A stretch of 64,000 nt of DNA from a virus (lineage: Duplodnaviria; Caudoviricetes). The notes beneath the pieces are model-generated. The model saw only the letters and a list, made by a program, of their open reading frames with translations. It was not told the DNA's origin and ran no database searches. Where the stretch lies: positions 32,001-96,000 of IMG/VR virus record IMGVR_UViG_3300038679_000051. One strand, 5' to 3'. Positions 15,404-64,000 of this stretch are shown piece by piece. The position numbers and the translations under genes are program-made. The number at the start of each line of letters is the position of its first letter. Position 1 is the first letter of the stretch.

Positions 15404-15415
15404 GTTCTATCCTTT

Positions 15416-16375
15416 TCATTCATCATCTGCGATGGCTTGTGCCGTTGCTCGTATAAATTCATCTGCAAATAAACCAGCCCGACGGACTGAAAACAATTCT
15501 GATTCTTTGTCTTTAGATATTATAGCAATGGCGAATAACAAATGATCTATGAGGTGCGTCATTTGTTTGAGATTTTCAAATCTCACATCATCCTCGTTCG
15601 TTTCACCAACCGGATTGATGGGTCCGACCAACTTATTAACGACTTTGTTCAAATTAATGTCGTTTCCCATTATCAGCTCCTTCCAACGGTACGTAATGTT
15701 TATAATTTGCCTTTAACAATGCCATTATCAGCTCCTTCCAACGGTACGTAATGTTTATAATTTGCCTTTAACAATGCCATTATCAGCTCCTTCCAACGGT
15801 ACGTAATGTTTATAATTTGCCTTTAACAATGCCCGTAAAGCAGTTTTCTCCAGACTGTCGCGGTTCCTCTGCGTGCATCGCAAAGCACCGTCAATGCCGA
15901 ATGCAAATCCATCCATAAAAATGCGAGCATCATACCAATTTTTGAATTTAAAATCATTGATATATACGAATCCATTGTCAATCCTTATGGTTGACTTAAA
16001 CATAAGACATGTCTTGCGACACAATTCTTCGTCAACGTCGCGTGGCATTGGGTCCAACATCATTTTGCGTGGTTTTTCATTCATGTTTTGAATTCTTCTT
16101 TATCTTGCTTTCGTTCATGTAAATCAATGCAAAGTCGCTTGCCGCCATCCAACATCATCAACAGCATTTCCACTGTCCAATTCAGACACGCATTCTGGAC
16201 AGCAGACTCTGCCATTTCTAATGGCCCAACCCAGACTCTGGACAAGCTCTATAAAGCCTGTCTTTTTATATCCCGATCGTTGTACCCATACGCTGCATCG
16301 AGCACACCAAATTGTATATTCGATAGTTATTGCATGATTATATCGTTTCATGTCTGCTCTAGACATTCGTATCAA
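15416..16375 (-). other. Three hypothetical genes (15416-15670, 15755-16084, 16124-16375)
   Basis: Co-oriented ORFs lying between the direct repeats. Confidence 0.55.
15667..15833. repeat. Perfect 3 x 55-bp tandem repeat spanning a gene end, RBS and ATG
   Basis: Unit ccattatcagctccttccaacggtacgtaatgtttataatttgcctttaacaatg starts at 15667, 15722 and 15777; no spacers. Confidence 0.95.
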
Positions 16376-16397
16376 CCTCTATCCTTTTCATCGGCTG

Positions 16398-17369
16398 TCA
16401 TCTGCGATGGCTTGTGCCGTTGCTCGTATCATCTTCTGGCGATATTATTATGCGATCGTTTGGGAACTTTTTACGGAATACATCTACGATATATTCTTGC
16501 CATTTTATGGTGTGAAAATTTGGAACTGAAATGCGGTGTTCATTCTTTTCTGCGTCATAAATTGTCGTAAACAACATTTCGTTGCAATCAGAACAATAGA
16601 CAATATAAGCTGGAACGACATGACAACCTTTTGAATGCCATTCCCATAACGGAGAATGATGTGTGCAGTCGCTCATCCTTCGCTTGTCGCATATTTTACA
16701 TTTTTCGGGAGGTTCTTGTTGCATGTTATTTTCTCCTTCTTGTTTGTCTGTTTTTATTTCTTCTGTCTTGTGTGTAAATTCCACTGATTTACCCGTCGCT
16801 CTGGCGTAAGCAATTTCGCGGCGCGTGCTCTCGCCGATATATCCACCAGGATTGATTACCAACACATGAGATGCCATGTCAATCTTACGGAGATGAAGTT
16901 CGTCCAGCCGTCGTTTGTCATCGTCCGTTATGTGGTCACCAGAATGCATGAACACACCTGGTGCAAGAACGATCCGTCCGGTCATCGTTTCGCGACGATT
17001 GGCTTCGATAAATTCATCCCGGAAACGCGTTGATCCACATAGACATACCACAGTGGGTAACGTAAGACCTTTGATTGCTTCAGATTCTCCTGCCGCAACC
17101 AAAGGCAACAGCCTTTTGTCAGGCAACTCCTTAACTTTGTCGCTTAAACCCTTTTTACTCTCATTAATTGCTTCGAAGAGAGCCTTTCCATGTATGTCTT
17201 CTCGTTTGCTTGCACCCGTTTCCTCATCATGTTCGTCATTCATGACCTCATCATATGACCACCCTGGACGTTTTGGTTTATCCTTTGGTTTGTGATCGTT
17301 ACATAATTTCCACATCAATATCGTAGAACAGATTAAACAGATAATCATGAACAACAACGTTTCTGACAT
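16398..17369 (-). CDS. Multidomain protein with a DUF4406 / nucleoside-deoxyribosyltransferase-like domain
   Basis: N-terminal TM; central VVCLCGSTRF...LHLRKIDMASHVLVINPGGYIGESTRREIAYA; C-terminal Cys-rich region. Confidence 0.7.
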   Translation of the reverse strand: MSETLLFMIICLICSTILMWKLCNDHKPKDKPKRPGWSYDEVMNDEHDEETGASKREDIHGKALFEAINESKKGLSDKVKELPDKRLLPLVAAGESEAIKGLTLPTVVCLCGSTRFRDEFIEANRRETMTGRIVLAPGVFMHSGDHITDDDKRRLDELHLRKIDMASHVLVINPGGYIGESTRREIAYARATGKSVEFTHKTEEIKTDKQEGENNMQQEPPEKCKICDKRRMSDCTHHSPLWEWHSKGCHVVPAYIVYCSDCNEMLFTTIYDAEKNEHRISVPNFHTIKWQEYIVDVFRKKFPNDRIIISPEDDTSNGTSHRR

Positions 17370-43790: not shown

Positions 43791-45807
43791 TCAATGATTT
43801 ACCAATGATTTACCATCGAGTTCCCAACCGACGTTGTTCTTAGACAAAATGGATTCTCTTCCATTAAGAAGCAATTGTACTTTATGGACCGCATGTTGAT
43901 CAGCCAATGATATGATCGGCCATATTGCCGAATGCTTGAACATAATGGGTCTGGTTGTCTCGGCGCATGCCGTTTTGTCGGGCATGATGCGCATTCTTAC
44001 CCAACCAGTCTTTAACATGTCGCTCATGTTTAGGCCGTGAGCGATTGCCCACTCATTGTGAATGACATCCTTGAAGGTGAATGCCTTGTCATCGGGGTTG
44101 ATCCAAATCCCAATTCCTGCCTCTTTGAACAATTTGTTCTTCGCCATTTCATCGATGCGCATGTCCAGCCATTCCTTGAAATCCATGTTTCATTCCTTTA
44201 TCGTTTGTCCATGTTTTAACAACCATATCTGAAATTGGCACACGTTAACGTTCCACCCCTTGTCGCCCGTTGCCTTGGCGTATGCCTTACGGCACGCAGA
44301 AACCCAGAGAATGTAACCGGTCATTTTACCTCCCGGCCATTTCAGGTCATCATCTTGTAAGCACGCTTCCGGATCATCTGGGAATCCACGAGCTTTGCAG
44401 TAAGTGAGATAAGCATGCGTGAATTCCTGTTTCACCATCACTGGTAAATCCTAGGCACGTTGTTAGCCATGTCAAGTTTGAAACATTTCATTCGTTCGGT
44501 CAGGGGAACGGAATCATGTTGCTTCTTTCGAAATTCAACGATGTGTTTGTTGCGCTCTTTCTTGGTAAGGAATGGTCCGATCAATTTGCCAGCAGATAAG
44601 ACGTAGAAAGAGCCAGCCTTAACGTTTGTCTTAACGTTTGCGTGTACTATTAGACGCCAACCCAACATGTTGAGCGCCTCCAATGCAGCATCCTGCACGT
44701 CAATTGCTTTGACTACGAATGAATCATTTGCATCATTGTCGTTTTGGATCGTGAATTTTCTCATCTTTTTCCTCCCCATTTTTGCTTTCGGTTTGTGACA
44801 CCGCTTTGAAGACGTGCTCATGGACTGCGGCATCGGATTCAAATTTACCGCAAGCGTCGCAACGCTCAATGCGGACGCCATGGACGTCGTTTTCAACGAG
44901 CAAGTAACCACGACTCTCACACGCTTTGCATCTTTTATGCGCCATTTTCGCTCTCCTCCTTCTGCCGGTCCGTATCGGCAACGAGGTCGCCGCTCCGTGC
45001 GGGGAAAGCGACGTTGACGATGGCCTTCAATTGCTCGACGGTCAGCGTCTTGACGTCAATCTTCTCGAATTTACGAGTCAGACATTGTTTGAGATACCGA
45101 CATTTAAGATCTTCAGTTTCGACGCGATAAATCACGCGATCGTAGCTTTGACCGCCAACTATCCTCACTTGATCATATGTGTAGATTTCACGATAGAATT
45201 TGATGGGCGGCTGCGGCTTCATCCTTTCAACGACGGCTTGCTTTTCCGTCGTACGCGAAATCACGAACTTCGTCAGCCCCTGATAAAAATTGTCGGCGTA
45301 AACGACCATGCCGGCTTCAAGCTTTGCCATTTTCATCTCCTAATCTCTTTCCGAGTAAATTCCGTCCGTGGTCGGTTGTGATGCTTTATTGCCTAACAAT
45401 TTGCGGACAAATTTCAACGTTTTTCGTTCTTTAGGCGAACATTTCAATTTCATTTCATCCGAGATCGAGGATTGTGCAACGTCGAGCAGATTCAGAAAAT
45501 CGTCGTAGATTTCAGCCGGGATTGTAATCGTTTTGGTCTTCATTCTTTCCTACTCCTAACAGCTAAAGAGAATGTGTCGGTGCGTCTTAGGATTGTCTTC
45601 GCAACGACAGGGATTCGGTTGACCACTGTGAAACTTTTTATCTTTGGAGACTTTCCATCCACTGTTCACCGGTTGTTCCGAGTTAAGCCTTCTCGTCGCT
45701 TCCCTATTCGTCAAACTCGTACAGACGGAAGCATAACAGATTCCTAAACTGTAGATGGTAAAATCCTCGGCCTTCGTTGTCTTGGTCATCATCGTTTTTG
45801 TCTTCAT
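43791..45807 (-). other. Run of small hypothetical genes (43791-44186, 44190-44441, 44438-44764, 44733-44945, 44935-45336, 45340-45543, 45556-45807)
   Basis: Abutting co-oriented ORFs with RBSs; 44733 has two CxxC motifs. Confidence 0.6.
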
Positions 45808-45893
45808 TTGATCATCTCCAAAAATTGTTCCTCGCTAATCACTTTCGTGCCATACTTCTCAGCTTTTTTGGTCTTGCTACTTTGGCTTGACGG
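45804..45893 (-). pseudogene. Orphan second copy of the ligA 3' end (BRCT C-terminus, 29 codons + TGA)
   Basis: Encodes PSSQSSKTKKAEKYGTKVISEEQFLEMIK*, versus ligA PSSQSSKTRKAAKYGTKVISEEQFLEMIK (46670-46756): 27/29 aa identical and 20/87 nt different by hand count. Confidence 0.9.
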
Positions 45894-46642: not shown

Positions 46643-48565
46643 TCAAGTGTACTCTGCAGCGCTGGACAATTTGATCATCTCCAGAAATTGCTCCTCACTA
46701 ATCACTTTTGTGCCGTATTTTGCGGCCTTGCGGGTTTTAGATGATTGGCTTGACGGGTCCGCTTGCACCAAGTGGGTCACCGTTGGACCGACTTCATCCT
46801 TCACCGCCCCACCGTTTTCAAGGACCAATTGCTGCGCCGCTGCCCGTTTCATACCCGACGGCAACGCTCCCGTAAACACCATGACGAGATTCGCCAGTTT
46901 CCCGCCGCTCGTCGCCGCCGGCGTCTCCTCCGCCGCGTCGTCCGCGTCACCGACGACCACGCCGTTTGCCAGCAGTTTGTCGACGAGTCCGCTACACGCC
47001 GCCAGTCCGGCCACGACGACAGGACCAATGCCGCTGCCGAGCGCAAGCGATTCTTCCGTCGTCATCTCACGCCATTCCCTGAGCGTCTTCTTGCCGCATT
47101 TCTTGATGAACTCTTCCGCCGCCCGTTTACCTAGGAAGCGGATGCCCAATGAGCCAATGAATTCGGCCAAGGTCAAATTCTTTTTCTTCTCAATCTCAGC
47201 AAGAATTGCTTGTGCTCGTTTGATGCCGAGATTGCCGTTGCCGACGGTCAGATTCGGCAACCTTTCCATGTCGAGGACGTAGAGATCGGCTGGGTCTTTA
47301 ACCAGACCGGATTCATACAACGCCGCTTCCACTTCCGGACCGATGAACTTGATGTCGTTCGACTTAATCCAGCGACGGACTTTACGGACGGCCTTACCGT
47401 CGCACTCGTCATTTTGACAAACCAATGCTGCACCATCGCGAGCCACCGCACCGCCACAGACTGGACAGACCGTTGGGATTGTAATTGGCGTACCACCCTT
47501 ACAGGATACTAACTTAGGGATCACATCCCCTGCTCTGATGACTTCGACCTCACCGCCGATCCCTAAATTGAGACGCTTAATCTCATCTTCATTGTTGACT
47601 AAGACGGAAGTGACGGTTACGCCGCCAATGTTGATCGGGTCAATTTTACCAACGGGGACGATGCTGCCGGTGTGACCTACCGACCATTCGATGGAACGTA
47701 GAATTGATTTTCCGCCCATCGGTGGGAATTTGTAAGCCATTTGACCCTTGGGGTTCTGGTCATGAAACCCAAGTGCCTTTTGCGTTGCAATGTCGTCAAA
47801 CCGCAGCACCAATCCATCCACTTCGAACGGCAGTGTGGCCCGTTCGTTACGTCGTTTGTCATAGACGGTTTGTATCAGACCCAATGTGTCTGCGCCAGTA
47901 ACCAATGCGCCCTCATCGACGTCGAATCCCAATCGAGCGAGATATTGTTGGTTATCCCGTTCGGTGTCGCAGCATGATTCACCGTCGCACAGCACGTCGT
48001 ATGCCTTTAGACGCAACCATTCACAACCATCACCGCGTTTGTTGCGCAATGCACCGTTACCGGCATTGCGGGGATTGGCACAATCGGCGAAATGCGTTTT
48101 AAATTCGTCTTGGTGGAGAATTGCCTCACCACGTACGTAACCGGTGAATTCTTCATTCAACCGTTGGGGAATGAATTTGGATTTCTTGACGTTTTCGGTC
48201 AGGTCCTCGCCGGTATTTCCATCCCCACGACTGATGGCCTGTACCAGTTGTCCCTTCTCGTATTTAAGAGACAATGAGCAGCCGTCGAACTTCCATTGGA
48301 CGAGAATTTTCGTACCAGGGGTTTTGTCCAACCAGCGCTTGATTTCTTTCTCATCCTTGACTTTGTTGAGACTGCCCATTGGGATGCTATGCTTGATCTT
48401 GGTAAAGAGGTCGGAGACTGGTGCCCCAACCGTTTTAAAGAACGGGTCGTTGGGATGTTCAGCCTTCGCCTCGTCATACAGACGGTCGTAATCGGCGTCT
48501 GACATGACTGCTTTGTCATTGTAGTAAGCTTCGGCAGCCTTCTTGAGCGCATCAATCTTGGTCAT
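46643..48565 (-). CDS. ligA: NAD-dependent DNA ligase
   Basis: YYNDKAVMSDADYD, KFDG, SRGDGNTGEDLT, VRGE, DGLV, AYKFP, VGHTGSIVPV, RAGDVIP, Zn finger CPVC...C...C, HhH motifs and BRCT (VFTG). Confidence 0.97.
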   Translation of the reverse strand: MTKIDALKKAAEAYYNDKAVMSDADYDRLYDEAKAEHPNDPFFKTVGAPVSDLFTKIKHSIPMGSLNKVKDEKEIKRWLDKTPGTKILVQWKFDGCSLSLKYEKGQLVQAISRGDGNTGEDLTENVKKSKFIPQRLNEEFTGYVRGEAILHQDEFKTHFADCANPRNAGNGALRNKRGDGCEWLRLKAYDVLCDGESCCDTERDNQQYLARLGFDVDEGALVTGADTLGLIQTVYDKRRNERATLPFEVDGLVLRFDDIATQKALGFHDQNPKGQMAYKFPPMGGKSILRSIEWSVGHTGSIVPVGKIDPINIGGVTVTSVLVNNEDEIKRLNLGIGGEVEVIRAGDVIPKLVSCKGGTPITIPTVCPVCGGAVARDGAALVCQNDECDGKAVRKVRRWIKSNDIKFIGPEVEAALYESGLVKDPADLYVLDMERLPNLTVGNGNLGIKRAQAILAEIEKKKNLTLAEFIGSLGIRFLGKRAAEEFIKKCGKKTLREWREMTTEESLALGSGIGPVVVAGLAACSGLVDKLLANGVVVGDADDAAEETPAATSGGKLANLVMVFTGALPSGMKRAAAQQLVLENGGAVKDEVGPTVTHLVQADPSSQSSKTRKAAKYGTKVISEEQFLEMIKLSSAAEYT

Positions 48566-55489: not shown

Positions 55490-56230
55490 TCACAATTCTA
55501 GTTTTCTGTGGCCCAATGCGCAGAATTTCTTAATTACCATTCTATCTACCGACGTTTCGTGCATCTCCTCGATCACTTCATCCTCCTGCTGTGACGTGAT
55601 GGCCACGTCTGCATCTGCGTCCGCGTCTGATCCATCTAACATTAATTTTCGTTGGCCTAATCCACCAAATTTGACGCGGACGACGTTGATGATTCTCTCG
55701 GCTAATTTTTTCAGGTATTCGCGGATTGATTGTGACAGTGCAGCATCCTTTTCGTTACATTCCTCCAAATTCATTGTCAACGTATCACGCATTCGCCGTA
55801 CGCCATTGGCAACCTTCGTCTCGTTCTTGCTGAGCAGCAACACGTGTGAATCCTTGGACCAGGAGTTCAACACGGTCACCATCATGTGTTTTGATGGGTC
55901 ATACGATTGTAGGACCTTAAACGTGCCATCTTGAGCATTCTGGACGTATTCCAGTTGCGTCACTTTATATTGAGTGCCGAGCATTCTGGCCGCCTCGTTG
56001 TCCTTCTTGAGTTGTTTCTCGTCCTGTGGTGCATAACCTTTCTTCACCTTTTCATTGATTTTGTCTTGGATGAATGCGGCACGTTCATATGGCGATCCGA
56101 AATCGTGCGTCTTTTCTTGCGGTTTCAATCCAATCCTTCCCCACTGAACTTTCACGGAAGTCGTACCAATTTCCTCGTATGCCCACATCTTATTCGAACT
56201 TCCCTCTTTGCACGTGAAGATTTGTTTCAT
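55490..56230 (-). CDS. WGR-domain protein
   Basis: EGSSNKMW...VKVQWGRIG...KINEKVKKGY. Confidence 0.85.
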   Translation of the reverse strand: MKQIFTCKEGSSNKMWAYEEIGTTSVKVQWGRIGLKPQEKTHDFGSPYERAAFIQDKINEKVKKGYAPQDEKQLKKDNEAARMLGTQYKVTQLEYVQNAQDGTFKVLQSYDPSKHMMVTVLNSWSKDSHVLLLSKNETKVANGVRRMRDTLTMNLEECNEKDAALSQSIREYLKKLAERIINVVRVKFGGLGQRKLMLDGSDADADADVAITSQQEDEVIEEMHETSVDRMVIKKFCALGHRKLEL

Positions 56231-56604
56231 CGACGTTCCCCTTTTGGTTGACAGTATTTGTCGATTACGCCCTTTAATTTATCTTTAGGCGTGGCCGTAA
56301 TTTTTGCAATCAATCCCGGATTTTGCCTCAACAACGACAACAGCATTCTAGCTTCTCTGCGACGATTGTTTTTCGCCTGTTTGCGACATTCTTTACACAA
56401 TTCGGATTGATAGAAACATGACGTGAACGATTCATGCTTCTTTTTGCATTTCTTGCAGATTAGCGTGCCAATCTGCTTGTTCGATTCTAAGTCGTATCTC
56501 AATGATCCGACGACGAAATGTGGATATTTCTCTTTTAATTCCGTTTCATCCATCCTGGCTGCGGCTACTCGTTCCAACAGCATCTGCATTTCTTTTTTGT
56601 CCAT
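56227..56604 (-). CDS. Zinc-finger protein (paralog of 57383-57667)
   Basis: KYPHFVVGS...NKQ...CKKC...ESFTS...CKECRK. Confidence 0.65.
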   Translation of the reverse strand: MDKKEMQMLLERVAAARMDETELKEKYPHFVVGSLRYDLESNKQIGTLICKKCKKKHESFTSCFYQSELCKECRKQAKNNRRREARMLLSLLRQNPGLIAKITATPKDKLKGVIDKYCQPKGERR

Positions 56605-57382: not shown

Positions 57383-57667
57383 TTATTTCTTATCTTTCTT
57401 CGTTTCTTTCTTGACCTCTTTCTTTGTCTTTGTTTCTTCTTTGGTCTCTTCTTTAATTTTCTTGGTTTTCTTGCGACAATCCGCACATGTCTTCAGTTGG
57501 AACAGATCGGATGTGAAGCATTCGTATTCCGTACCACAGGCACATTTACAACGCGCACGTTGTTTGTTCTTGGTGGCATCCCAAACGATGGAACCCGCGA
57601 CGAAGTGTGGATACTTGGCGAAGTATTCATCGCCTTTTCTTTTCACTTGCTTTGCTTGCTTTGCCAT
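57383..57667 (-). CDS. Zinc-finger protein with Lys/Glu tail (paralog of 56227-56604)
   Basis: KYPHFVAGS...NKQ...CKCAC...ECFTS...CADCRK. Confidence 0.7.
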   Translation of the reverse strand: MAKQAKQVKRKGDEYFAKYPHFVAGSIVWDATKNKQRARCKCACGTEYECFTSDLFQLKTCADCRKKTKKIKEETKEETKTKKEVKKETKKDKK

Positions 57668-57992: not shown

Positions 57993-59332
57993 TTACATAA
58001 TTTTTATTTTTTTCGATTTAGATAAGAATTTGGCAAAATTCCTACTGAAATCAGTAGGCTTGCAGAAGCATTCTGGAGAGAAGACAGATTTCTCACCAGT
58101 GAGCAAGTAACCTATGACTATTTGATAATCACCATAATGACGGTTATTTAACACGACCAACATGACGTTGCATCCGTCTACAATTCTAGCTTCTATTTTA
58201 TTGCCGAATTTATTTGGCCAAATGCAGTCTTCAATGTTGATCTTCCGTCCAAATTTCTTAATGATTTGCTCATTGACATACGTCTCTTCCATGCGTACAA
58301 TCGCAGCCTTAAATTCGTCTATTGCGTTTGGCATGTCTGGTGCAGACATTTCGAACGATGCGTCGCCGATGGTTATTTTGACGGGCACTCGTTTTATATC
58401 GAGTTCATTAAGCTTGTGTTTTAATTGGTCAATCATCGTTTCTCCTTCCATGGGCTGGGCGGCGAGGCTTACTCGCCCAGCTTCGTCATTCTGGCTCACC
58501 CATCATGAAAATTCTTGCATTCTTACCTTGACTCCGTAGCACGCTTAATCGTGCTTTTGCTTTTTCTATTTCGGTAACCGGAAACGTTAGGGCATCCAAC
58601 TCCTGGTAACAACCCTCATAGCAGGGATTACCCTTGGGGTTTTTTGTGATTGCGCAGATTAAAAAGCGCGTCTTTAACTTCATTGTCGTGGGTTTGGGGT
58701 GCATTTCTTGTTCATCCAATTCCGTGAACGGTCCATAACGTTCCTGCTCAAGATAGGCGTTGACTAAATCGTGTTGTTCATCCACCTCCTTCTGTGTCAT
58801 CGGCTGGATTGGATTAACGGGGATGCCGGATCGCATTAATCGTTTGCCGGTCGTTGGGTCGTATGAATAAACCATCTTGATCTCCTTATAAACGTGGATT
58901 GAAACTACCATGTGCTTGTTTTTGTATCTTGTAGTGGTGTCGAAACTGGGTGAGAGCAGTCGTAGCCGCAATTCAGCCAGATATTGTTCGACGAAAAGCA
59001 GACGTTCATGTCCTTGTAAATCAAAAACGAACAAAGTCAATCTGGGGCTACGTTACCGCCAAGCGTGCCATGATCACCAAATTCGATGTCGGCGAAACGT
59101 TGAGCGACCTCACGGATCTTGGTGATTCTTTTCTTTGTCTTACTATTCATCTTTTGCTCCTTTTTGTTTTCTTTTTTCCGACATATTTAAGCTTAATCGC
59201 TCCACCTACCGTAGCGGATAGGTCTCGCGGCACGCGTCTCCAGACACTATCTGGGACGGTCTTACCGATTTCAGACAAAATCGTCCCAATGGATTTCACT
59301 TTCTTTTTCCGCTTCCCGCATGGTTTTTTCAT
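57993..59332 (-). other. Four small hypothetical genes (57993-58436, 58486-58875, 59037-59150, 59147-59332)
   Basis: RBS-preceded starts; 59037-59150 is a 37-aa ATGA-coupled ORF missing from the track. Confidence 0.5.
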
Positions 59333-59343
59333 TTCTTCCTCCT

Positions 59344-60663
59344 TTATGAGGCGTAGAACTCCTGAGGTAGCAGGCTCATGTCCCACATATTCTTCCACCC
59401 CCGGCGTCCGGTATCCCGCCAGATGACCAGCTTCTTCTCGGCGTACGGAGCGAAGACTTTCCGACATTGGGCCAAGAATGGCACTTCCCATGCCGTCGTC
59501 ATCTTGGTCACAATCTCGGACCCAACCCTCTCGGCCAGCTTCTTGGGGATGTCCCCATAGAGGCAGGTCAACCCGACGCAAATCTCGTCGGCCAACCCAT
59601 ACGCCTCGGCGAACGTCCCATGTTCTATTGCCATGCTAGAGATGTCCGGCATACATGGACAGACGTTGACCACCAGTTTGATTTTCCTCTGTCTGTAGAT
59701 CTCCCTAATCGCAGCAATCCTCTGTTCGTTGGGCGGCGCGTTTTGTTCCAGCCGCTTTCGCATCTCCTCGTCGAATGGAGAGAGTGCCATGTGGATGGAC
59801 GGATTCGGGAGCTTCGATATGAGGTCGAGATCACGAACCACAAGTGGTGATTTGGTGAAGATCCCGACCTTGGTCACATCTTTACCGCCGACAAGGTGAC
59901 GTAGGATGGTCTGCGTCGCCAGCGCCTTCTCCTCGCAGGGCTGGTACGGGTCTATATGGGTGCCGATAACCACCCTTCCCTTGAGGTCAAGTGGTAAGCA
60001 GGAAAAATCCTTGGACACACAGCCGTAGCAGTAGACGCAGCCGTGGGAGCAACCAGTGTACGGGTTATATCCGCGATCGAAACAGGAGAATCCGGTGGTC
60101 CTCGCATCCGTTGCCCCTTGCACGGAGGCGGTCGACCCCAGAAGCACGGCCTCGTAATTCTTGATCTCGAACACGTCGGTCTGGGCGTATTGATTGGTTA
60201 CACCAGCCAGTAGGGCGTGCATCGCCTCGTCGTGAGTCTCCACGGCCCTGACCGTCCGTTTGGACACCTCGCCTGTCTTATTGAAAAAGATCTTGATCAC
60301 CAGGAACGTTCCGGTCCGAATGGCGTGTTTCTTCTTGTCGCCCCGGCCCATGGTAATGGTAATCTTCTGATTGCCGGGGACTTCCAGCGTCCGATAGATT
60401 GCGCCATCCTTGGAAATGAAAGCGGCATTCCGCGTAGTGTGCCAGTGGAAGTTGCCATCGTACGTCTCGGAGAGCGCTCCCTCTCCGCCTTTCTGGACGG
60501 AGACCACGACGTTACTGATCTTCCCCGATCCGCCCCGGTCCTCGTTCCTGGTGCTCTGAATCCCGACGATCCAGTAATCGCCGTCCTTACTTTGCATCTT
60601 GCCGAAGTCCAGCCCAGACTTCATGTTGGTACCCTGGAAGAGCGGAGTCACGTCTTTTTCCAT
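59344..60663 (-). CDS. Radical SAM protein (SplB/Rv2578c-like) with an unrecognised ~170-aa N-terminal domain
   Basis: YNPYTGCSHGCVYCY (CxxxCxxC), GTHIDPYQPCE, FTKSPLVVRDLDLI; GC about 58-65% in sampled lines versus about 38% in the flank. Confidence 0.85.
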   Translation of the reverse strand: MEKDVTPLFQGTNMKSGLDFGKMQSKDGDYWIVGIQSTRNEDRGGSGKISNVVVSVQKGGEGALSETYDGNFHWHTTRNAAFISKDGAIYRTLEVPGNQKITITMGRGDKKKHAIRTGTFLVIKIFFNKTGEVSKRTVRAVETHDEAMHALLAGVTNQYAQTDVFEIKNYEAVLLGSTASVQGATDARTTGFSCFDRGYNPYTGCSHGCVYCYGCVSKDFSCLPLDLKGRVVIGTHIDPYQPCEEKALATQTILRHLVGGKDVTKVGIFTKSPLVVRDLDLISKLPNPSIHMALSPFDEEMRKRLEQNAPPNEQRIAAIREIYRQRKIKLVVNVCPCMPDISSMAIEHGTFAEAYGLADEICVGLTCLYGDIPKKLAERVGSEIVTKMTTAWEVPFLAQCRKVFAPYAEKKLVIWRDTGRRGWKNMWDMSLLPQEFYAS

Positions 60664-60672
60664 TTCTTCCTC

Positions 60673-61471
60673 CTATCCGTTGTACGCCGTCTGACAATCC
60701 TCATCGCAGCATCGTTGCCCGCGTTCTGTCGGTTCAAACCAATTTCCACACCAATCACATTGTCGCGGATTTTGCCATGATGGACATCCGGTCTCATGAC
60801 AAAAAACGCCATTTATCATGACTGCTTCACAATCATCGCATTTCTTAACCTTCCGTGGCTTAATTCCGGGCATTCTCTCCTTTCTTGTAGTATGGATTGA
60901 CAAACGTTCCTCATTTCTGCAGGTAGCCAGAAATCCTATCCAATCACGAATGTGTTGAATGCTGTCCAAATCATGAAGATTCGTCTGAATTTCAAACTCA
61001 TCACCTTTCAATCTATAATGCATCCATACGTTTCCATTTTCATAAAAGATGATATAAACGTTCGCCAATGGTACGCCGAACGGCGATTCTAATTTAAATG
61101 ATGCCGTGGCTACTTGAGTGGCTACTTGAACGAATTTAATGCCCAAGTCTTTGGTCAATTCATCGAGGATTTTCTGATACATGGCCTCAATTTCCTGACG
61201 TTGGTCGTCTCTGCTTCTTCTTTTTGTCTGATTCATCTATGAATGGCATTACATTTCCACTGTTAATATCATCCTTGATGTTGATTTTTATATGGTGATC
61301 CATTAACCAATCCACCAAGAACAATAGACCAATCCACCAAGAACAATAGTCGCAATTCCATTCCTTTCCATTTACAGTAAAGCCACTTCTTGACTTCCTT
61401 GTGAAAACTATCTTAAATTCACGAATGTCCGGTTTTTGCTTCTTTTGCTTCTTTTGTTTTTTCATTTTCAT
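60673..61471 (-). other. Two hypothetical genes (60673-61182, 61187-61471)
   Basis: 60673 ends in a Cys-rich cluster (CDDC...CHETGC...CDWC...CCDEDC). Confidence 0.55.
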
Positions 61472-61499
61472 TCTCCTCTTTCTGCGTCCACGGAGCAGA

Positions 61500-61521
61500 C
61501 GACCATCAACATTGATGGTCG
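61500..61521. promoter_or_regulatory. 22-bp palindrome abutting the middle repeat
   Basis: CGACCATCAA-CA-TTGATGGTCG. Confidence 0.55.
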
Positions 61522-61548
61522 TCATTCCCTCAATTTCCTGACGTTTCT

Positions 61549-62160
61549 CTACTTCTTCTTTATGGAAAGTGATTCTATTTCAAATTTAGTTGTATCGACA
61601 AAATCTATTACCTCCGTCATATTTGCTGCAATTGCTGCATCAATCGCTGCAGTGCAAATTTCCAACGTCTGCTTTTTAACAAATTCAAGCGCCATCCCGC
61701 ATTTCTGCACTGCTGCCAGACATATTTCCGGCGTCTGCTTTTTTACATATTCAAGCGCCTGACCATTTTGTTTTACTGCCGCCAGACATATTTCAGGTGT
61801 CTGTTTTTTGACATATCGAAGTGCCCAACCATTTTCTTTTACTGCTGCCATACATATTTCCGGCGTCTGCTTTTTTACATATTCAAGCGCCTGACCATTT
61901 TGTTTTACTGCCGCCAGACATATCTCTGGCGTCTGATCTTTGACGAATTTAATTGTATAACCATTTCGTTGTACTGCTGCCATGCATATTTCAGGAAATT
62001 GATCGCCCAAATCATGGAGTACGCCCCACAAGCTTATTTCATTGTTCAACAATCTCTCTACAATCGTTTCATCCTTCATCTGTTTATAATCGTCAATCTT
62101 CTGCACTACTTGAATTACGTCGCTTATTTGTTTCTTGCTTGCGTTCGTCATCCAGTGCAC
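61549..62160 (-). CDS. MHW-cap / DUF4116-repeat protein 10
   Basis: GTG start, MHWMTNASKKQI cap plus about 5 repeats. Confidence 0.85.
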   Translation of the reverse strand: MHWMTNASKKQISDVIQVVQKIDDYKQMKDETIVERLLNNEISLWGVLHDLGDQFPEICMAAVQRNGYTIKFVKDQTPEICLAAVKQNGQALEYVKKQTPEICMAAVKENGWALRYVKKQTPEICLAAVKQNGQALEYVKKQTPEICLAAVQKCGMALEFVKKQTLEICTAAIDAAIAANMTEVIDFVDTTKFEIESLSIKKK

Positions 62161-62170
62161 GTTTTATCTC

Positions 62171-62830
62171 CTATGCCAGAATGCAGATCTTGGTCTTGAA
62201 TTTCCTATCAACATATTTAAGTGCATCACCATTTTGTCTTACCGCTGCCATGCATATTTCTGGCGTCTGTTCTTTGACATATTCAAGTGCTGCACCATTT
62301 TGTCGTACTGCGGCCATGCATATTTCTGGCGTCTGTTTTTTGACAAACCGAAGTGCATCACCATCTTGTTGTACTGCTGCCAGGCATATTTCTGGCGTCT
62401 GTTTTTTGACATATACAAGTACCCAACCCCATTGTTGTACTACTGCCATACATATTTCTGGCGTCTGTTCCTTGACATATTTAAGTGCATCATTATCTTG
62501 TTGTACTGCTGCCATGCATATTTCTGGTGTTTGTTCCTTGACGTGTTCAAGTGCTGCACCATTTTGTCGTACTGCCGCCATGCATATTTCTGGTGTCTGT
62601 TCCTTGACATATACAAGTACATGACCCCATTGTTGTACTGCTGCCAGGCATATGGCTGGAAATTGATTGTCTAAATGTTTAAGCACATCACTTAAAACCC
62701 GAATCTCATCATCCAATAATTTCTTAACGATCGTTTCGTCCTTCATCTGTTTATAATTGCCATCAAACTTTCTCACTGCTTCAATCACATCATTCAATTG
62801 TTCCTTACTTGCGTTCGTCATCCAGTGCAT
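62171..62830 (-). CDS. MHW-cap / DUF4116-repeat protein 11
   Basis: MHWMTNASKEQL cap plus about 6.5 repeats. Confidence 0.85.
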   Translation of the reverse strand: MHWMTNASKEQLNDVIEAVRKFDGNYKQMKDETIVKKLLDDEIRVLSDVLKHLDNQFPAICLAAVQQWGHVLVYVKEQTPEICMAAVRQNGAALEHVKEQTPEICMAAVQQDNDALKYVKEQTPEICMAVVQQWGWVLVYVKKQTPEICLAAVQQDGDALRFVKKQTPEICMAAVRQNGAALEYVKEQTPEICMAAVRQNGDALKYVDRKFKTKICILA

Positions 62831-62869
62831 GTTTATCTCCTATTGGACCAATTTGTCTCTTTTGTTATT

Positions 62870-64000
62870 TCATTCCCTCAATTTCCTGACGTTGGTCGTC
62901 TCTACTTCCTCATCGTCTGAGGCTGGTGTGGCGTTTTCCTTGGCCCAATTTGCCATTGTCTCCAATTGCTTGGCGCGTGATTTGGCCAATGGTGTGAAGC
63001 TGTCCATTTCTGCCAAGATGTGTTCCTTGGTCAATTGGCGATCACCGCCCATGTGATAAGCATGAAACAATCCACCGATGACGGCTTGTTCGATTTCTGC
63101 GCCACTGTAATCCCTAGATTGTTTGACCAATTCATCAACGCCGACCTTCTTTGGATCGCGACCGTGTTTGCGGATTTGGATTTCAAAAATGTCCTTACGT
63201 TCCCTCTCAGACGGCAGACCGACGAAGAAGATTTCGTCGAAGCGACCTTTTCTGAGCAATTCATCTGGCAACAAATCAATTCTGTTCACTGTGGCCATGA
63301 TGAAGGCTTGTGATTTCTTTTCCTGCATCCACGTAATGAAGGTGCCGAACACCCGTTTGCCGGTGCCGCCGTCAGTCTCACCGCTACCGCCCATTCCGGC
63401 GAATGCCTTGTCCAATTCATCGATCCAGACGATGCAGCGACCGACGGCATCGATCGTGTTGATGGCCGTCCGCACGTTTGCTTCCGATTGACCGACCAAC
63501 GACCCAAATACTTTGCCGACGTCAAATCGAATGAGTGGGACGCCGATTAGGTTTGATGCTGCTTTGGCGGCGAGGCTTTTACCACACCCTGGCAGGCCCA
63601 CCAGCATGACGCCCTTCGGCGACGGCAGACCATACTGTTTCGCCTCTTTGGTGAAGCATGGTTGGACGCGATTTTTGAGCCATCGTTTCAAGCGGTTCAA
63701 ACCACCCACGTCTTCAGGTTTCTCAACCGCCTCGAAGATTTCCAAGATGCCGCTCTTTTTGACCGCCAATGATTTTTCTTTCATGACAATTCGACTGATC
63801 GGTAGATCAAGATTCAATTTCTTTTTGTCGATTGCTGCCTTTGCGATTGCGTTTTCCGCTTCACCAATCGTCAGCCCCATAGCTGATTGGATGATCATGT
63901 CTTTTTCTTCTTCCTCGATCTTACCGAAAACGTTCTTATTCTCAGACATCAGATTATCCAAGACTAACAGGATGTCTTTCTCTGATGGCAAATCGAATTC
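62870..64000 (-). CDS. AAA+ ATPase, Ycf46/SpoVK-like (5' end outside the window)
   Basis: DVGGLNRLKRWL, GVMLVGLPGCGKS (Walker A), VWIDELDK (Walker B), ATVN, LLRKGRFDE (SRH); frame open to the window edge. Confidence 0.92.
   Translation of the reverse strand, partial: EFDLPSEKDILLVLDNLMSENKNVFGKIEEEEKDMIIQSAMGLTIGEAENAIAKAAIDKKKLNLDLPISRIVMKEKSLAVKKSGILEIFEAVEKPEDVGGLNRLKRWLKNRVQPCFTKEAKQYGLPSPKGVMLVGLPGCGKSLAAKAASNLIGVPLIRFDVGKVFGSLVGQSEANVRTAINTIDAVGRCIVWIDELDKAFAGMGGSGETDGGTGKRVFGTFITWMQEKKSQAFIMATVNRIDLLPDELLRKGRFDEIFFVGLPSERERKDIFEIQIRKHGRDPKKVGVDELVKQSRDYSGAEIEQAVIGGLFHAYHMGGDRQLTKEHILAEMDSFTPLAKSRAKQLETMANWAKENATPASDDEEVETTNVRKLRE

Follow-up and report, generated by a model that had tools for sequence, protein, structure and literature searches.

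The 3' end of an AAA ATPase gene in a huge (jumbo) groundwater phage with a genome of 320,399 bp is present three times at one locus, and the two displaced copies were probably left by two successive accessory insertions at a single junction downstream of that gene, by long target duplication and without a dedicated recombinase (probability about 0.6). The locus is apparently a real but fairly ordinary recombination scar and not an integron. The window analyzed is a 64,000-nt stretch of this genome, and positions refer to it unless genome coordinates are stated (Table 1).

Table 1. Features at and below the AAA ATPase junction, with window positions and the basis of each assignment
Feature	Position	Strand	Basis
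AAA ATPase gene, Cdc48/p97 D2-like, 3' 376 of 519 codons	62870..64000	-	PF00004 E = 6e-27, phrog_8638
R, reading as native AAA gene 3' end	62870..62911	-	…EEVETTNVRKLRE, TGA at 62870-62872
Likely ORF112 start relic	62858..62873	-	16/17 nt match, E = 3e-4, local junction comparison
DUF4116-A, 219 codons	62171..62830	-	PF13475 E = 2e-38
DUF4116-B, 203 codons	61549..62160	-	PF13475 E = 8e-43
R', putative orphan AAA tail copy, 5-nt deletion	61522..61564	-	repeat alignment
Inverted repeat, 12+12 nt arms, 2-nt non-palindromic center	61498..61523	.	11-bp stem on folding
ORF112, ORFan, 112 codons	61187..61525	-	cluster of one member
R'', putative orphan AAA tail copy	61185..61226	-	repeat alignment
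ORF169, ORFan, Cys-rich C-terminus	60673..61182	-	homologue search
Radical-SAM-like gene	59344..60663	-	weak PF04055 match
WGR-domain gene	55490..56230	-	PF05406 E = 2e-10

The repeated segment is about 36-42 nt long. Its 18-nt core (CCTCAATTTCCTGACGTT, plus strand) occurs three times in the window against 0.07 copies expected, a count reached in none of 100 shuffles. An exact search of the entire genome returned no further copy of the core, and a profile built from the three copies found no diverged relative genome-wide (next best E = 3.6), upholding the threefold repetition described in the first-pass annotation. The order given there is likewise what we find: AAA gene, R, two DUF4116 genes, R', ORF112, R'' and ORF169, all on the minus strand. 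R and R'' share 28 exact nt and agree at 34 of 36 positions overall, and R and R' share 24 exact nt, then, past a single 5-nt gap (CGACC, absent from R'), another 10 (36 identical of 42 alignment columns). In their upstream parts, which are A/G-rich and of low complexity and whose outermost few aligned nt may be fortuitous, 1-3 positions are alike in R' and R'' and different in R. The core is free of substitutions in all three copies, whereas the flanks have decayed, and the core could perhaps have been kept for some function. Every copy ends in GAGG with an ATG 2-3 nt further on, which had been described as a ribosome-binding site (RBS) with a nearby start; the motif and the ATG are present, but the spacing is short and poor for a Shine-Dalgarno sequence, so a role of the AAA tail as a start signal is not secure.

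To orient the copies, the AAA protein itself is informative. The gene extends past the end of the window (its full length is taken from contig L008, 3229-4788), and its best solved relatives are Cdc48/p97 (E = 2e-55). Read in the AAA frame, R gives EVETTNVRKLRE and then the stop, with the core encoding the terminal VRKLRE, and it closes with GAGGGAATGA, an ATGA stop/start overlap. Among 56 distinct tails of AAA homologues, 40 have a conserved C-terminal motif of the form R/K-[QKEP]-[LVI], with endings such as GRQLDL, ERKLEM, SRKVDA and similar. R thus encodes a conserved motif of the family and reads as the native coding copy, and R' and R'' accordingly read as displaced, derived orphan tails; R'' still translates in the AAA frame as …EEAETTNVRKL, and the 5-nt deletion in R' destroys that frame. 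The next open reading frame overlaps the AAA stop or starts within 15 nt of it in 33 of 51 relatives, so tight junctions at this position are a family trait.

DUF4116-A has a strong RBS of its own (AGGAGATAAAC ahead of the ATG) and is one of about 17 paralogues at 44-115 kb of the genome, the best of which is 69% identical. The last codons of DUF4116-B (KKK) and its TAG (61549-61551) lie within the left part of R'. We considered and rejected an origin of the R-to-R' segment by tandem duplication: the units between the copies are mutually unrelated, and the two DUF4116 proteins are only 60% identical to each other, each having a closer paralogue elsewhere. ORF112 likely starts at the ATG at 61465, 7 nt past a GGAG, although its longest frame is opened by the ATG of R' (61525). 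Were it not for an exact 22-nt tandem duplication inside the gene (61306-61349), its frame would end …CSWWIG followed by a stop. As the first-pass annotation had stated, ORF112 runs into R'' and is terminated there by a TGA in a frame other than that of the AAA gene, and R'' further provides the GAGG-CC-ATG of ORF169, whose ATG (61182) lies 4 nt past the ORF112 stop. ORF169, called as 169 or 187 codons in public assemblies, matched only itself among 5.8 billion proteins, and its Atlas look-alikes (score at most 0.85) offered no usable family; it is probably the gene that originally came next after the AAA gene in this lineage.

Directly behind R lies a stretch that resembles the start of ORF112 (ATG AAA TAA CAA AAG A, against ATG AAA AAA CAA AAG A at 61465) and that now forms a frame of only 2 codons. 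By its sequence this is likely a decayed ORF112 start; because it is A-rich, the assignment is only moderately secure.

We next to this place the evidence from relatives. The AAA-to-WGR spacing is 6.5 kb here, compared with 0.15-5.2 kb in the 8 distant relatives in which a WGR homologue follows the AAA gene, and the roughly 12 genes that separate the two in our phage have homologues in none of the loci of 70-odd relatives. The WGR gene, as the first gene further downstream to be conserved in relatives, marks the far edge of this variable island. Two near-identical relatives (L004 and L005) differ by a two-gene indel located exactly after the AAA stop, and no duplicated tail is found at that indel; the hotspot is common to these relatives and the studied phage, and the type of scar is not. 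These comparisons mark the interval behind the AAA gene as hypervariable among relatives; the accessory arm around the locus is hyperplastic, with many ORFans and paralogues. An empty site for comparison was not available: AAA homologues in IMG/VR and in a metagenome contig collection are at most 58% identical in protein sequence and share no downstream genes, with no intermediate relatives between them and the studied phage; exact-protein look-ups returned the same strain only, and the close contigs, being that strain, have the same inserts.

The AAA gene is not alone in this genome in having a duplicated tail. At least three further gene tails are duplicated in the same manner: that of ligA (67/87 nt and 27/29 aa, the copies 863 nt apart), that of a 323-codon gene, with the copies around two small open reading frames, and that of a 440-codon gene, with the copies around a single 102-codon frame. 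A 14-nt repeat of RBS and ATG around the radical-SAM-like gene has a parallel architecture. The sequences duplicated at these other sites are unrelated and 14-90 nt in length, and so speak against a single site-specific enzyme.

The junctions recur in independent contigs of both JGI and Logan assemblies from several samples, and the arrangement is therefore not an assembly artifact. Gene content and order between the R copies are the same in every assembly (three metagenomic runs and other contigs), but this invariance is weak evidence, because the assemblies with the locus are effectively one strain, identical apart from a repeat-number difference (DUF4116-B in contig L008 is 132 nt shorter, or two 66-nt units). 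Across contigs from three DNA runs and one RNA run, and across other contigs, no joint indicative of a deletion or a circle turned up at R; contigs cannot reveal rare forms, so this absence is no evidence against excision. Two candidates for structural variation were set aside. A joint that skips 863 nt (61911 to 62775) has 10 mismatches on its 66-nt side and falls inside the DUF4116 repeats, and we read it as paralogue cross-mapping. Contig ends at 61541/61542, seen in a low-depth run and one JGI contig, were not taken as heterogeneity of R', since coverage at that point is about 2-3 and a single data set may be the source of both. Contigs from the RNA library cover parts of the AAA gene, DUF4116-A and DUF4116-B, and ORF169 and none of the R copies, and are uninformative on transcription.

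Taken in order, the events may have been as follows. A first insertion would have brought in ORF112 and a second the DUF4116 pair. The AAA tail encodes the conserved C-terminal motif of its own protein, and its purine-rich stretch and ATG may in addition serve to begin the next gene; an insertion at such a junction would spare both neighbors only when the tail is duplicated. Tail-duplicating events would persist because otherwise one neighbor of the packed junction would fail. The redundant copies would then have decayed, through a 5-nt loss in R' and a stop acquired by the ORF112 start left over behind R. Each orphan tail opens with the same GAAGAAG, directly past A-rich lysine codons of the incoming gene, which suggests that the joins were guided by microhomology. 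Two points sit less easily with serial insertion. It is a coincidence that two independent illegitimate events should have broken within about 2 nt of the same point; microhomology accounts for this only in part, and homologous recombination through R, or a mechanism with a preferred site, would do so better. The agreement of R' and R'' against R would further call for a later change in R or for gene conversion. The earlier proposal of successive insertions at one hotspot nonetheless stands as the best reading, given the native motif in R, the ORF112 start relic and the hypervariable interval. We infer the insertions and their mechanism from the internal structure of one genome, because neither an empty-site comparator nor an excision product was seen.

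This reading has a precedent. Insertion with long target duplication (Nobusato et al. 2000, Gene 259:99), cited by Furuta et al. (2010, PMC2853133), places a gene-sized insert between direct target duplications of >30 bp; the duplicated stretch often takes in the 3' end of a neighboring gene, its sequence has no other occurrence in the genome, transposase and integrase genes are absent, and the known cases are restriction-modification units in bacterial chromosomes, proven by empty-site comparison (PMC2853133). R is alike in length (>30 bp), in genome uniqueness and in the missing mobility genes. It differs in residing in a jumbo phage, in its cargo of DUF4116 repeat proteins and an ORFan, in lacking an empty site and in an apparent second hit at the same target, which gives three copies. 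The layout fits this published class, and the locus points neither to a new class of mobile element nor to a new enzyme. There is little documentation of how huge phages gain their hundreds of accessory genes, since close relatives can seldom be compared, and the locus together with its at least three parallels forms an internal record of such gain, with inserts exactly at gene junctions and a spare tail of the upstream gene kept. This suggests a rule for genomes in which the end of one gene contains what the following gene needs to start: an insertion survives there only if it duplicates the junction. Orphan tails could on that basis serve to tally insertions and to place them in sequence, including in phages that have no sequenced relatives.

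A similar outcome is familiar from elements that integrate into the 3' end of a protein or tRNA gene and supply a substitute gene end. At icd of E. coli, e14 and phage 21 leave the target gene intact with its 3' end copied on both sides of the insert; the displaced 3' end is a pseudo-tail, and tandem accretion gives several such copies. Such elements carry an integrase gene and a defined core site, whereas the studied phage has no integrase-family match and its inserts are only 0.34 and 1.35 kb.

Among other explanations, an unlikely one that still deserves weight is that R is a portable homology handle, such that cassettes with one R excise as small circles by homologous recombination between neighboring R copies and reinsert at R, whether in the genome they left or in one that co-infects the cell, keeping the array dynamic. 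The model for this is the promoter-early stem-loop (PeSL) of T4-type phages, which is present in about 50 dispersed copies per genome, carries a sigma-70-type promoter and a terminator stem-loop, spans the stretch from an upstream stop codon to the Shine-Dalgarno sequence and start of the next gene, flanks ORFans that come and go, and yields mini-circles that have been demonstrated experimentally (PMC2839356, PMC4122927). R is also a short junction repeat in a hyperplastic phage region rich in ORFans and paralogues, much as PeSL regions are (PMC2839356, PMC4122927), and direct repeats of 24-28 exact nt border each unit. That R' and R'' have the same left boundary is, moreover, what a Campbell-type crossover through pre-existing homology is expected to produce. 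However, R codes for the end of the upstream gene's product, and its three copies lie within 1.7 kb at one locus, with none elsewhere. A promoter scan found no sigma-70-like minus-strand site in or next to any R copy, and a terminator scan found no terminator-like site at any of them. R is on no other viral contig in IMG/VR, where the exact 18-mer gave two hits with unrelated flanks, consistent with chance. The contigs of the three DNA runs and the other assembled contigs, in which rare forms would be invisible, show no deletion or circle.

Less probable again is that R is a cis-acting RNA element (for translational coupling, as an operator or as a processing site) that co-regulates three genes, its identity with the AAA tail being secondary. 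Perfect conservation of the core amid decaying flanks, the GAGG and ATG closing every copy and the 4-nt spacing of the ORF112 stop and ORF169 start in R'' are all in keeping with such an element, as is the presence of AAATTGAGGGA at the end of the duplicated tail of the 440-codon gene as well. Yet three local copies cannot distinguish selection from recent origin, DUF4116-A begins 40 nt beyond R with a strong RBS of its own, and the ORF112 start relic behind R is left unexplained. Folding of the R copies is unremarkable (z = -2.2, -2.3 and -0.2), and an Rfam scan of 59000-64000 found no family match at E up to 5. Elsewhere, the same type of scan gave a single sub-threshold hammerhead-like hit at 96-108 kb of the genome and none at a repeat of ~100 nt around a DUF4116 gene (100339-101049).

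A broader proposal, which we regard as improbable, would make the AAA tail an active landing pad for the repeated capture and shedding of accessory genes, either independent of a recombinase or served by an unknown one, with the 26-nt hairpin beside R' as part of the signal; in its general form, huge phages would build their accessory arms by junction-duplicating insertion at the 3' ends of conserved genes.

Integron arrays consist of co-oriented, tightly packed cassettes between repeated elements and take up new cassettes near a fixed gene; their attC sites are imperfect palindromes, and the platform comprises attI/Pc and the tyrosine recombinase gene intI. The first-pass annotation had likened the locus to such an array, and we judge it very improbable that R is the attachment site of an integron-like system in which the 26-nt inverted repeat is a folded signal for an unrecognized recombinase of phage or host. 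The likeness is in the co-oriented, packed units split by a repeat, the apparently newest of them nearest the fixed gene, as polar insertion at the AAA-proximal copy would give; the breakpoints of the two orphan tails also nearly coincide, and a strong hairpin abuts R', sharing GACGACCA between its arm and the R and R'' cores. Described earlier as a perfect 22-bp palindrome, this inverted repeat does sit at R', but its center holds 2 non-palindromic nt, and 2 nt of it fall inside R'; a U-tract is lacking, and the terminator scan did not call it. The 11-bp hairpin is present at one of the three copies only, and R and R'' pair just 4 bp on folding, with no attC-like internal symmetry. Nor is there an intI or an attI/Pc platform. 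In this genome, rated complete (IMG/VR/CheckV), searches for five recombinase and mobility families, PF00589 (Phage_integrase), PF00239 (Resolvase), PF01844 (HNH), PF01541 (GIY-YIG) and PF07282 (TnpB), gave no match genome-wide; the PF00589 search gave a match in all 14 control genomes. Proteins of the cassettes belong to DUF4116 or to no family, and there is no mobility gene in or beside the inserts. The R site is nowhere else in the genome or in IMG/VR, the other tail duplications use unrelated sequences, and cassette content is constant among the assemblies examined (effectively one strain). As a mechanism, the integron comparison is thus not supported.

Chance resemblance or assembly error, for which only the A/G-rich, low-complexity upstream parts of the repeats speak, is negligible in view of the shuffles and of the three junctions in JGI and Logan assemblies alike.

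Further down the island, a 14-nt direct repeat comprising an RBS and an ATG flanks the radical-SAM-like gene (60661-60674 and 59330-59343), and these are its only two sites in the genome.

The locus lies in a complete-rated virus record of 320,399 bp with direct terminal repeats (the window being its bases 32001–96000), and the sequencing runs that carry it are groundwater and coal metagenomes. All genes around it are on the minus strand. As the first-pass annotation had claimed, the 3′ end of the AAA ATPase gene is tripled, as R, R′ and R″: the window holds three occurrences of its 18-nt core where 0.07 would be expected, and the whole genome also holds just three. A profile built from the three copies found no fourth in the genome (next best match, E = 3.6), and every junction of the locus is reproduced by independent assemblies. 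The repeat is a real, well-delimited and statistically secure feature. R terminates in GAGGGAATGA, an ATGA stop/start overlap. The palindrome reported beside R′ as a perfect 22-bp one is indeed an inverted repeat, but a 2-nt centre parts its arms.

Coordinates and order of the repeat locus and of similar junction repeats (window positions unless marked)
Feature	Position	Strand	Remarks
AAA ATPase		-	519 codons; PF00004, phrog_8638; nearest solved relatives Cdc48/p97
R	62870-62911	-	AAA gene end
DUF4116-A, then DUF4116-B	next after AAA in transcription order	-	
R′	61522-61564	-	begins at last codons and TAG of DUF4116-B; 5 nt (CGACC) missing relative to R
Inverted repeat beside R′	61498-61523		12+12-nt arms, 2-nt centre; folds as 11-bp stem, without U-tract
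ORF112, then ORF169	after DUF4116-B	-	ORFans of 112 and 169 codons
R″	61185-61226	-	ORF112 end, different frame; ORF169 ATG 4 nt later
Radical-SAM-like gene, several small unknown genes, then WGR-domain gene	after ORF169	-	
ligA tail (last 29 codons)	45807-45893; 46670-46756		recurs 863 nt downstream, past two small genes
Tail of 323-codon gene, 49-52 nt	15406-15454; 16378-16429 (the gene's own tail)		second copy 972 nt downstream; two small ORFs between the copies
Tail of 440-codon gene, 30 nt	genome 106626-106655; 106962-106991 (L088, a stretch of this genome, 10626-10655; 10962-10991)		second copy 336 nt downstream; a single 102-codon ORF between the copies
RBS+ATG repeat AGGAGGAAGAAATG, 14 nt	59330-59343; 60661-60674		brackets radical-SAM-like gene
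Repeat pair at cap-less DUF4116 gene (3′ end and its copy)	L088 4319-4442; 5025-5136 (genome 100319-100442; 101025-101136)		

About 70 metagenomic and viral loci with AAA homologues supplied C-terminal tails for comparison; 56 of these tails were distinct, and 40 of the 56 end in R/K-[QKEP]-[LVI] plus a few residues (GRQLDL, ERKLEM, SRKVDA, KRELAL and the like, each followed by the stop). The protein here ends in VRKLRE, with the motif encoded by the R core. In R′ the AAA frame is broken by the 5-nt deletion; R″ read in that frame would still give EEAETTNVRKL. Because the R core encodes a C-terminal motif typical of AAA homologues, its sequence marks R as native coding sequence under protein constraint, with R′ and R″ as displaced copies, which settles the direction: the ATPase end was not lent by the cassettes. 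Among the homologues at loci L004–L085, this phage AAA family shows a conserved motif, G/E-R-Q/K-L-D/E-L/I/M, at the extreme C-terminus just ahead of the stop. The motif might serve in docking, or the sequence might doubly encode the ribosome-binding site of the following gene (CTGGAGAT… ahead of the stop).

Of 51 relatives, 33 have a next ORF that either overlaps the AAA stop or begins no more than 15 nt from it, implying that the gene end also holds the initiation signal of the next gene, whatever that signal is. An insertion sparing both the ATPase motif and the downstream gene start would have to duplicate this junction, which would explain why each orphan tail directly precedes a gene start, and we infer that this need gave rise to the orphan tails. 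The most likely meaning of the repeat is that two insertions each left a scar at this closely packed junction. The likely order has ORF169 directly after AAA, then insertion of ORF112 to give AAA-R-ORF112-R″-ORF169, and then of the DUF4116 pair to give the present order. GTAGAG and GGGAATGA variants are common to R and R′ against R″, as expected if R and R′ are the younger pair. Behind R, ATG AAA TAA CAA AAG A differs at only 1 of 16 positions from ATG AAA AAA CAA AAG A, the start of ORF112 (16/17 nt matching in alignment); apparently the target duplicated in the second insertion extended into ORF112, the spare start being closed later by a stop. Both orphan tails start at the same GAAGAAG, just past lysine codons of the incoming gene, where microhomology may have guided the join. 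Recombination through a pre-existing R, serving as a portable homology handle in the manner of the promoter-early stem-loop (PeSL) cassettes of T4-type phages, would give the same coincident start and keeps its weight for that reason, although we consider it unlikely. R is somewhat like PeSLs in position and possible recombination role, but the defining features of PeSLs are absent from it.

The integron-like array suggested in the first-pass annotation found no support: Phage_integrase, Resolvase, HNH, GIY-YIG and TnpB families had no match in the genome (controls were positive), and R showed no attC-like symmetry, Rfam match, or promoter or terminator signal and was absent from other viral contigs. 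Across three DNA runs and the other assembled contigs, gene order at all three junctions is identical; as these assemblies represent one strain, such invariance says little about evolutionary mobility, and it lends no support to an active array. The sole difference between assemblies lies within DUF4116-B, where 61549-62160 and positions 5507-5977 of L008, another assembly of the strain, differ in length by 132 nt, exactly two units of 66 nt (22 residues each); either the repeat number truly varies or an assembly has collapsed the repeats. All assemblies also share a perfect 22-nt tandem duplication within ORF112 (61306-61349). Were there only one copy, the frame would close with …CSWWIG and a TAA stop, overlapping the ATG of a 38-codon frame, so ORF112 may have arisen by fusion of two very short ORFs.

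The companion proposal, successive insertions at one hotspot, agrees with the variability of the AAA–WGR interval in relatives. AAA, WGR, DUF2997 and a 77-codon gene are conserved in their loci, and no gene between AAA and WGR here has a homologue there; WGR follows AAA after 0.15 kb in one relative and after 1.6-5.2 kb in another seven, compared with 6.5 kb here. Two ~99%-identical phage contigs of 100-235 kb (L004 and L005), with AAA proteins 53% identical to this one, differ right after the AAA stop by a two-small-gene indel and a replaced GC-rich hairpin (L004 9143-9654 versus L005 9143-9198); this indel has neither tail duplication nor flanking repeats. Within the interval here, two small Cys-rich ORFs (56227-56604 and 57383-57667) share a KYPHFV(V/A)GS motif and are apparent paralogues; the pair appears to be a further sign of local duplication.

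When the genome was compared with itself, several short direct repeats emerged, each local and placed where one gene stops and the next starts. The ligA copies are identical at 67/87 nt and 27/29 residues, with mostly synonymous differences, so one of them apparently came from a diverged relative; at its end the orphan tail overlaps the following gene through an ATGA, and the ligA copy now reads 8 codons further. This duplication is the same type of scar as R. The duplicated tail of the 440-codon gene ends in AAATTGAGGGA, as R does, and AGGAGGAAGAAATG has just two occurrences in the genome, one at the start of the radical-SAM-like gene and one directly past its stop, where it begins the next small basic ORF. 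With lengths of 14 to about 90 nt and no sequence relationship to one another, these junction repeats speak for recombination of a general kind combined with selection, rather than for a single site-specific enzyme.

PMC2853133 describes bacterial restriction-modification units that entered by insertion with long target duplication, characterized by a duplication >30 bp, a genome-unique repeat and no mobility genes. This class is the best fit to R, which shares these three of its four features; for the fourth, a comparator with an empty site, the contigs and relatives compared gave no example. Within this class, the R locus would be a case from a huge phage, at a site hit twice. The locus does not represent a new kind of element, and it is not an integron. 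Integration of the e14/icd type is alike in outcome, but this phage has no match to the integrase families. The R locus offers a useful record of how the accessory arm of this phage has grown. The arm (genome 44-115 kb; window 12558-83037) is filled by a large, dispersed family of about 17 DUF4116 paralogues, every one of them on the minus strand, with 40-70% mutual identity and the same MHWMT… N-terminal cap in most. Ahead of one cap-less member stands a second version of that gene's 3′ end, ~110-125 nt long and 84% identical, apparently left over from unequal recombination between family members; the gene's start, ATGACGACCAC…, is similar to the ATGACGACCAT… found after R′.
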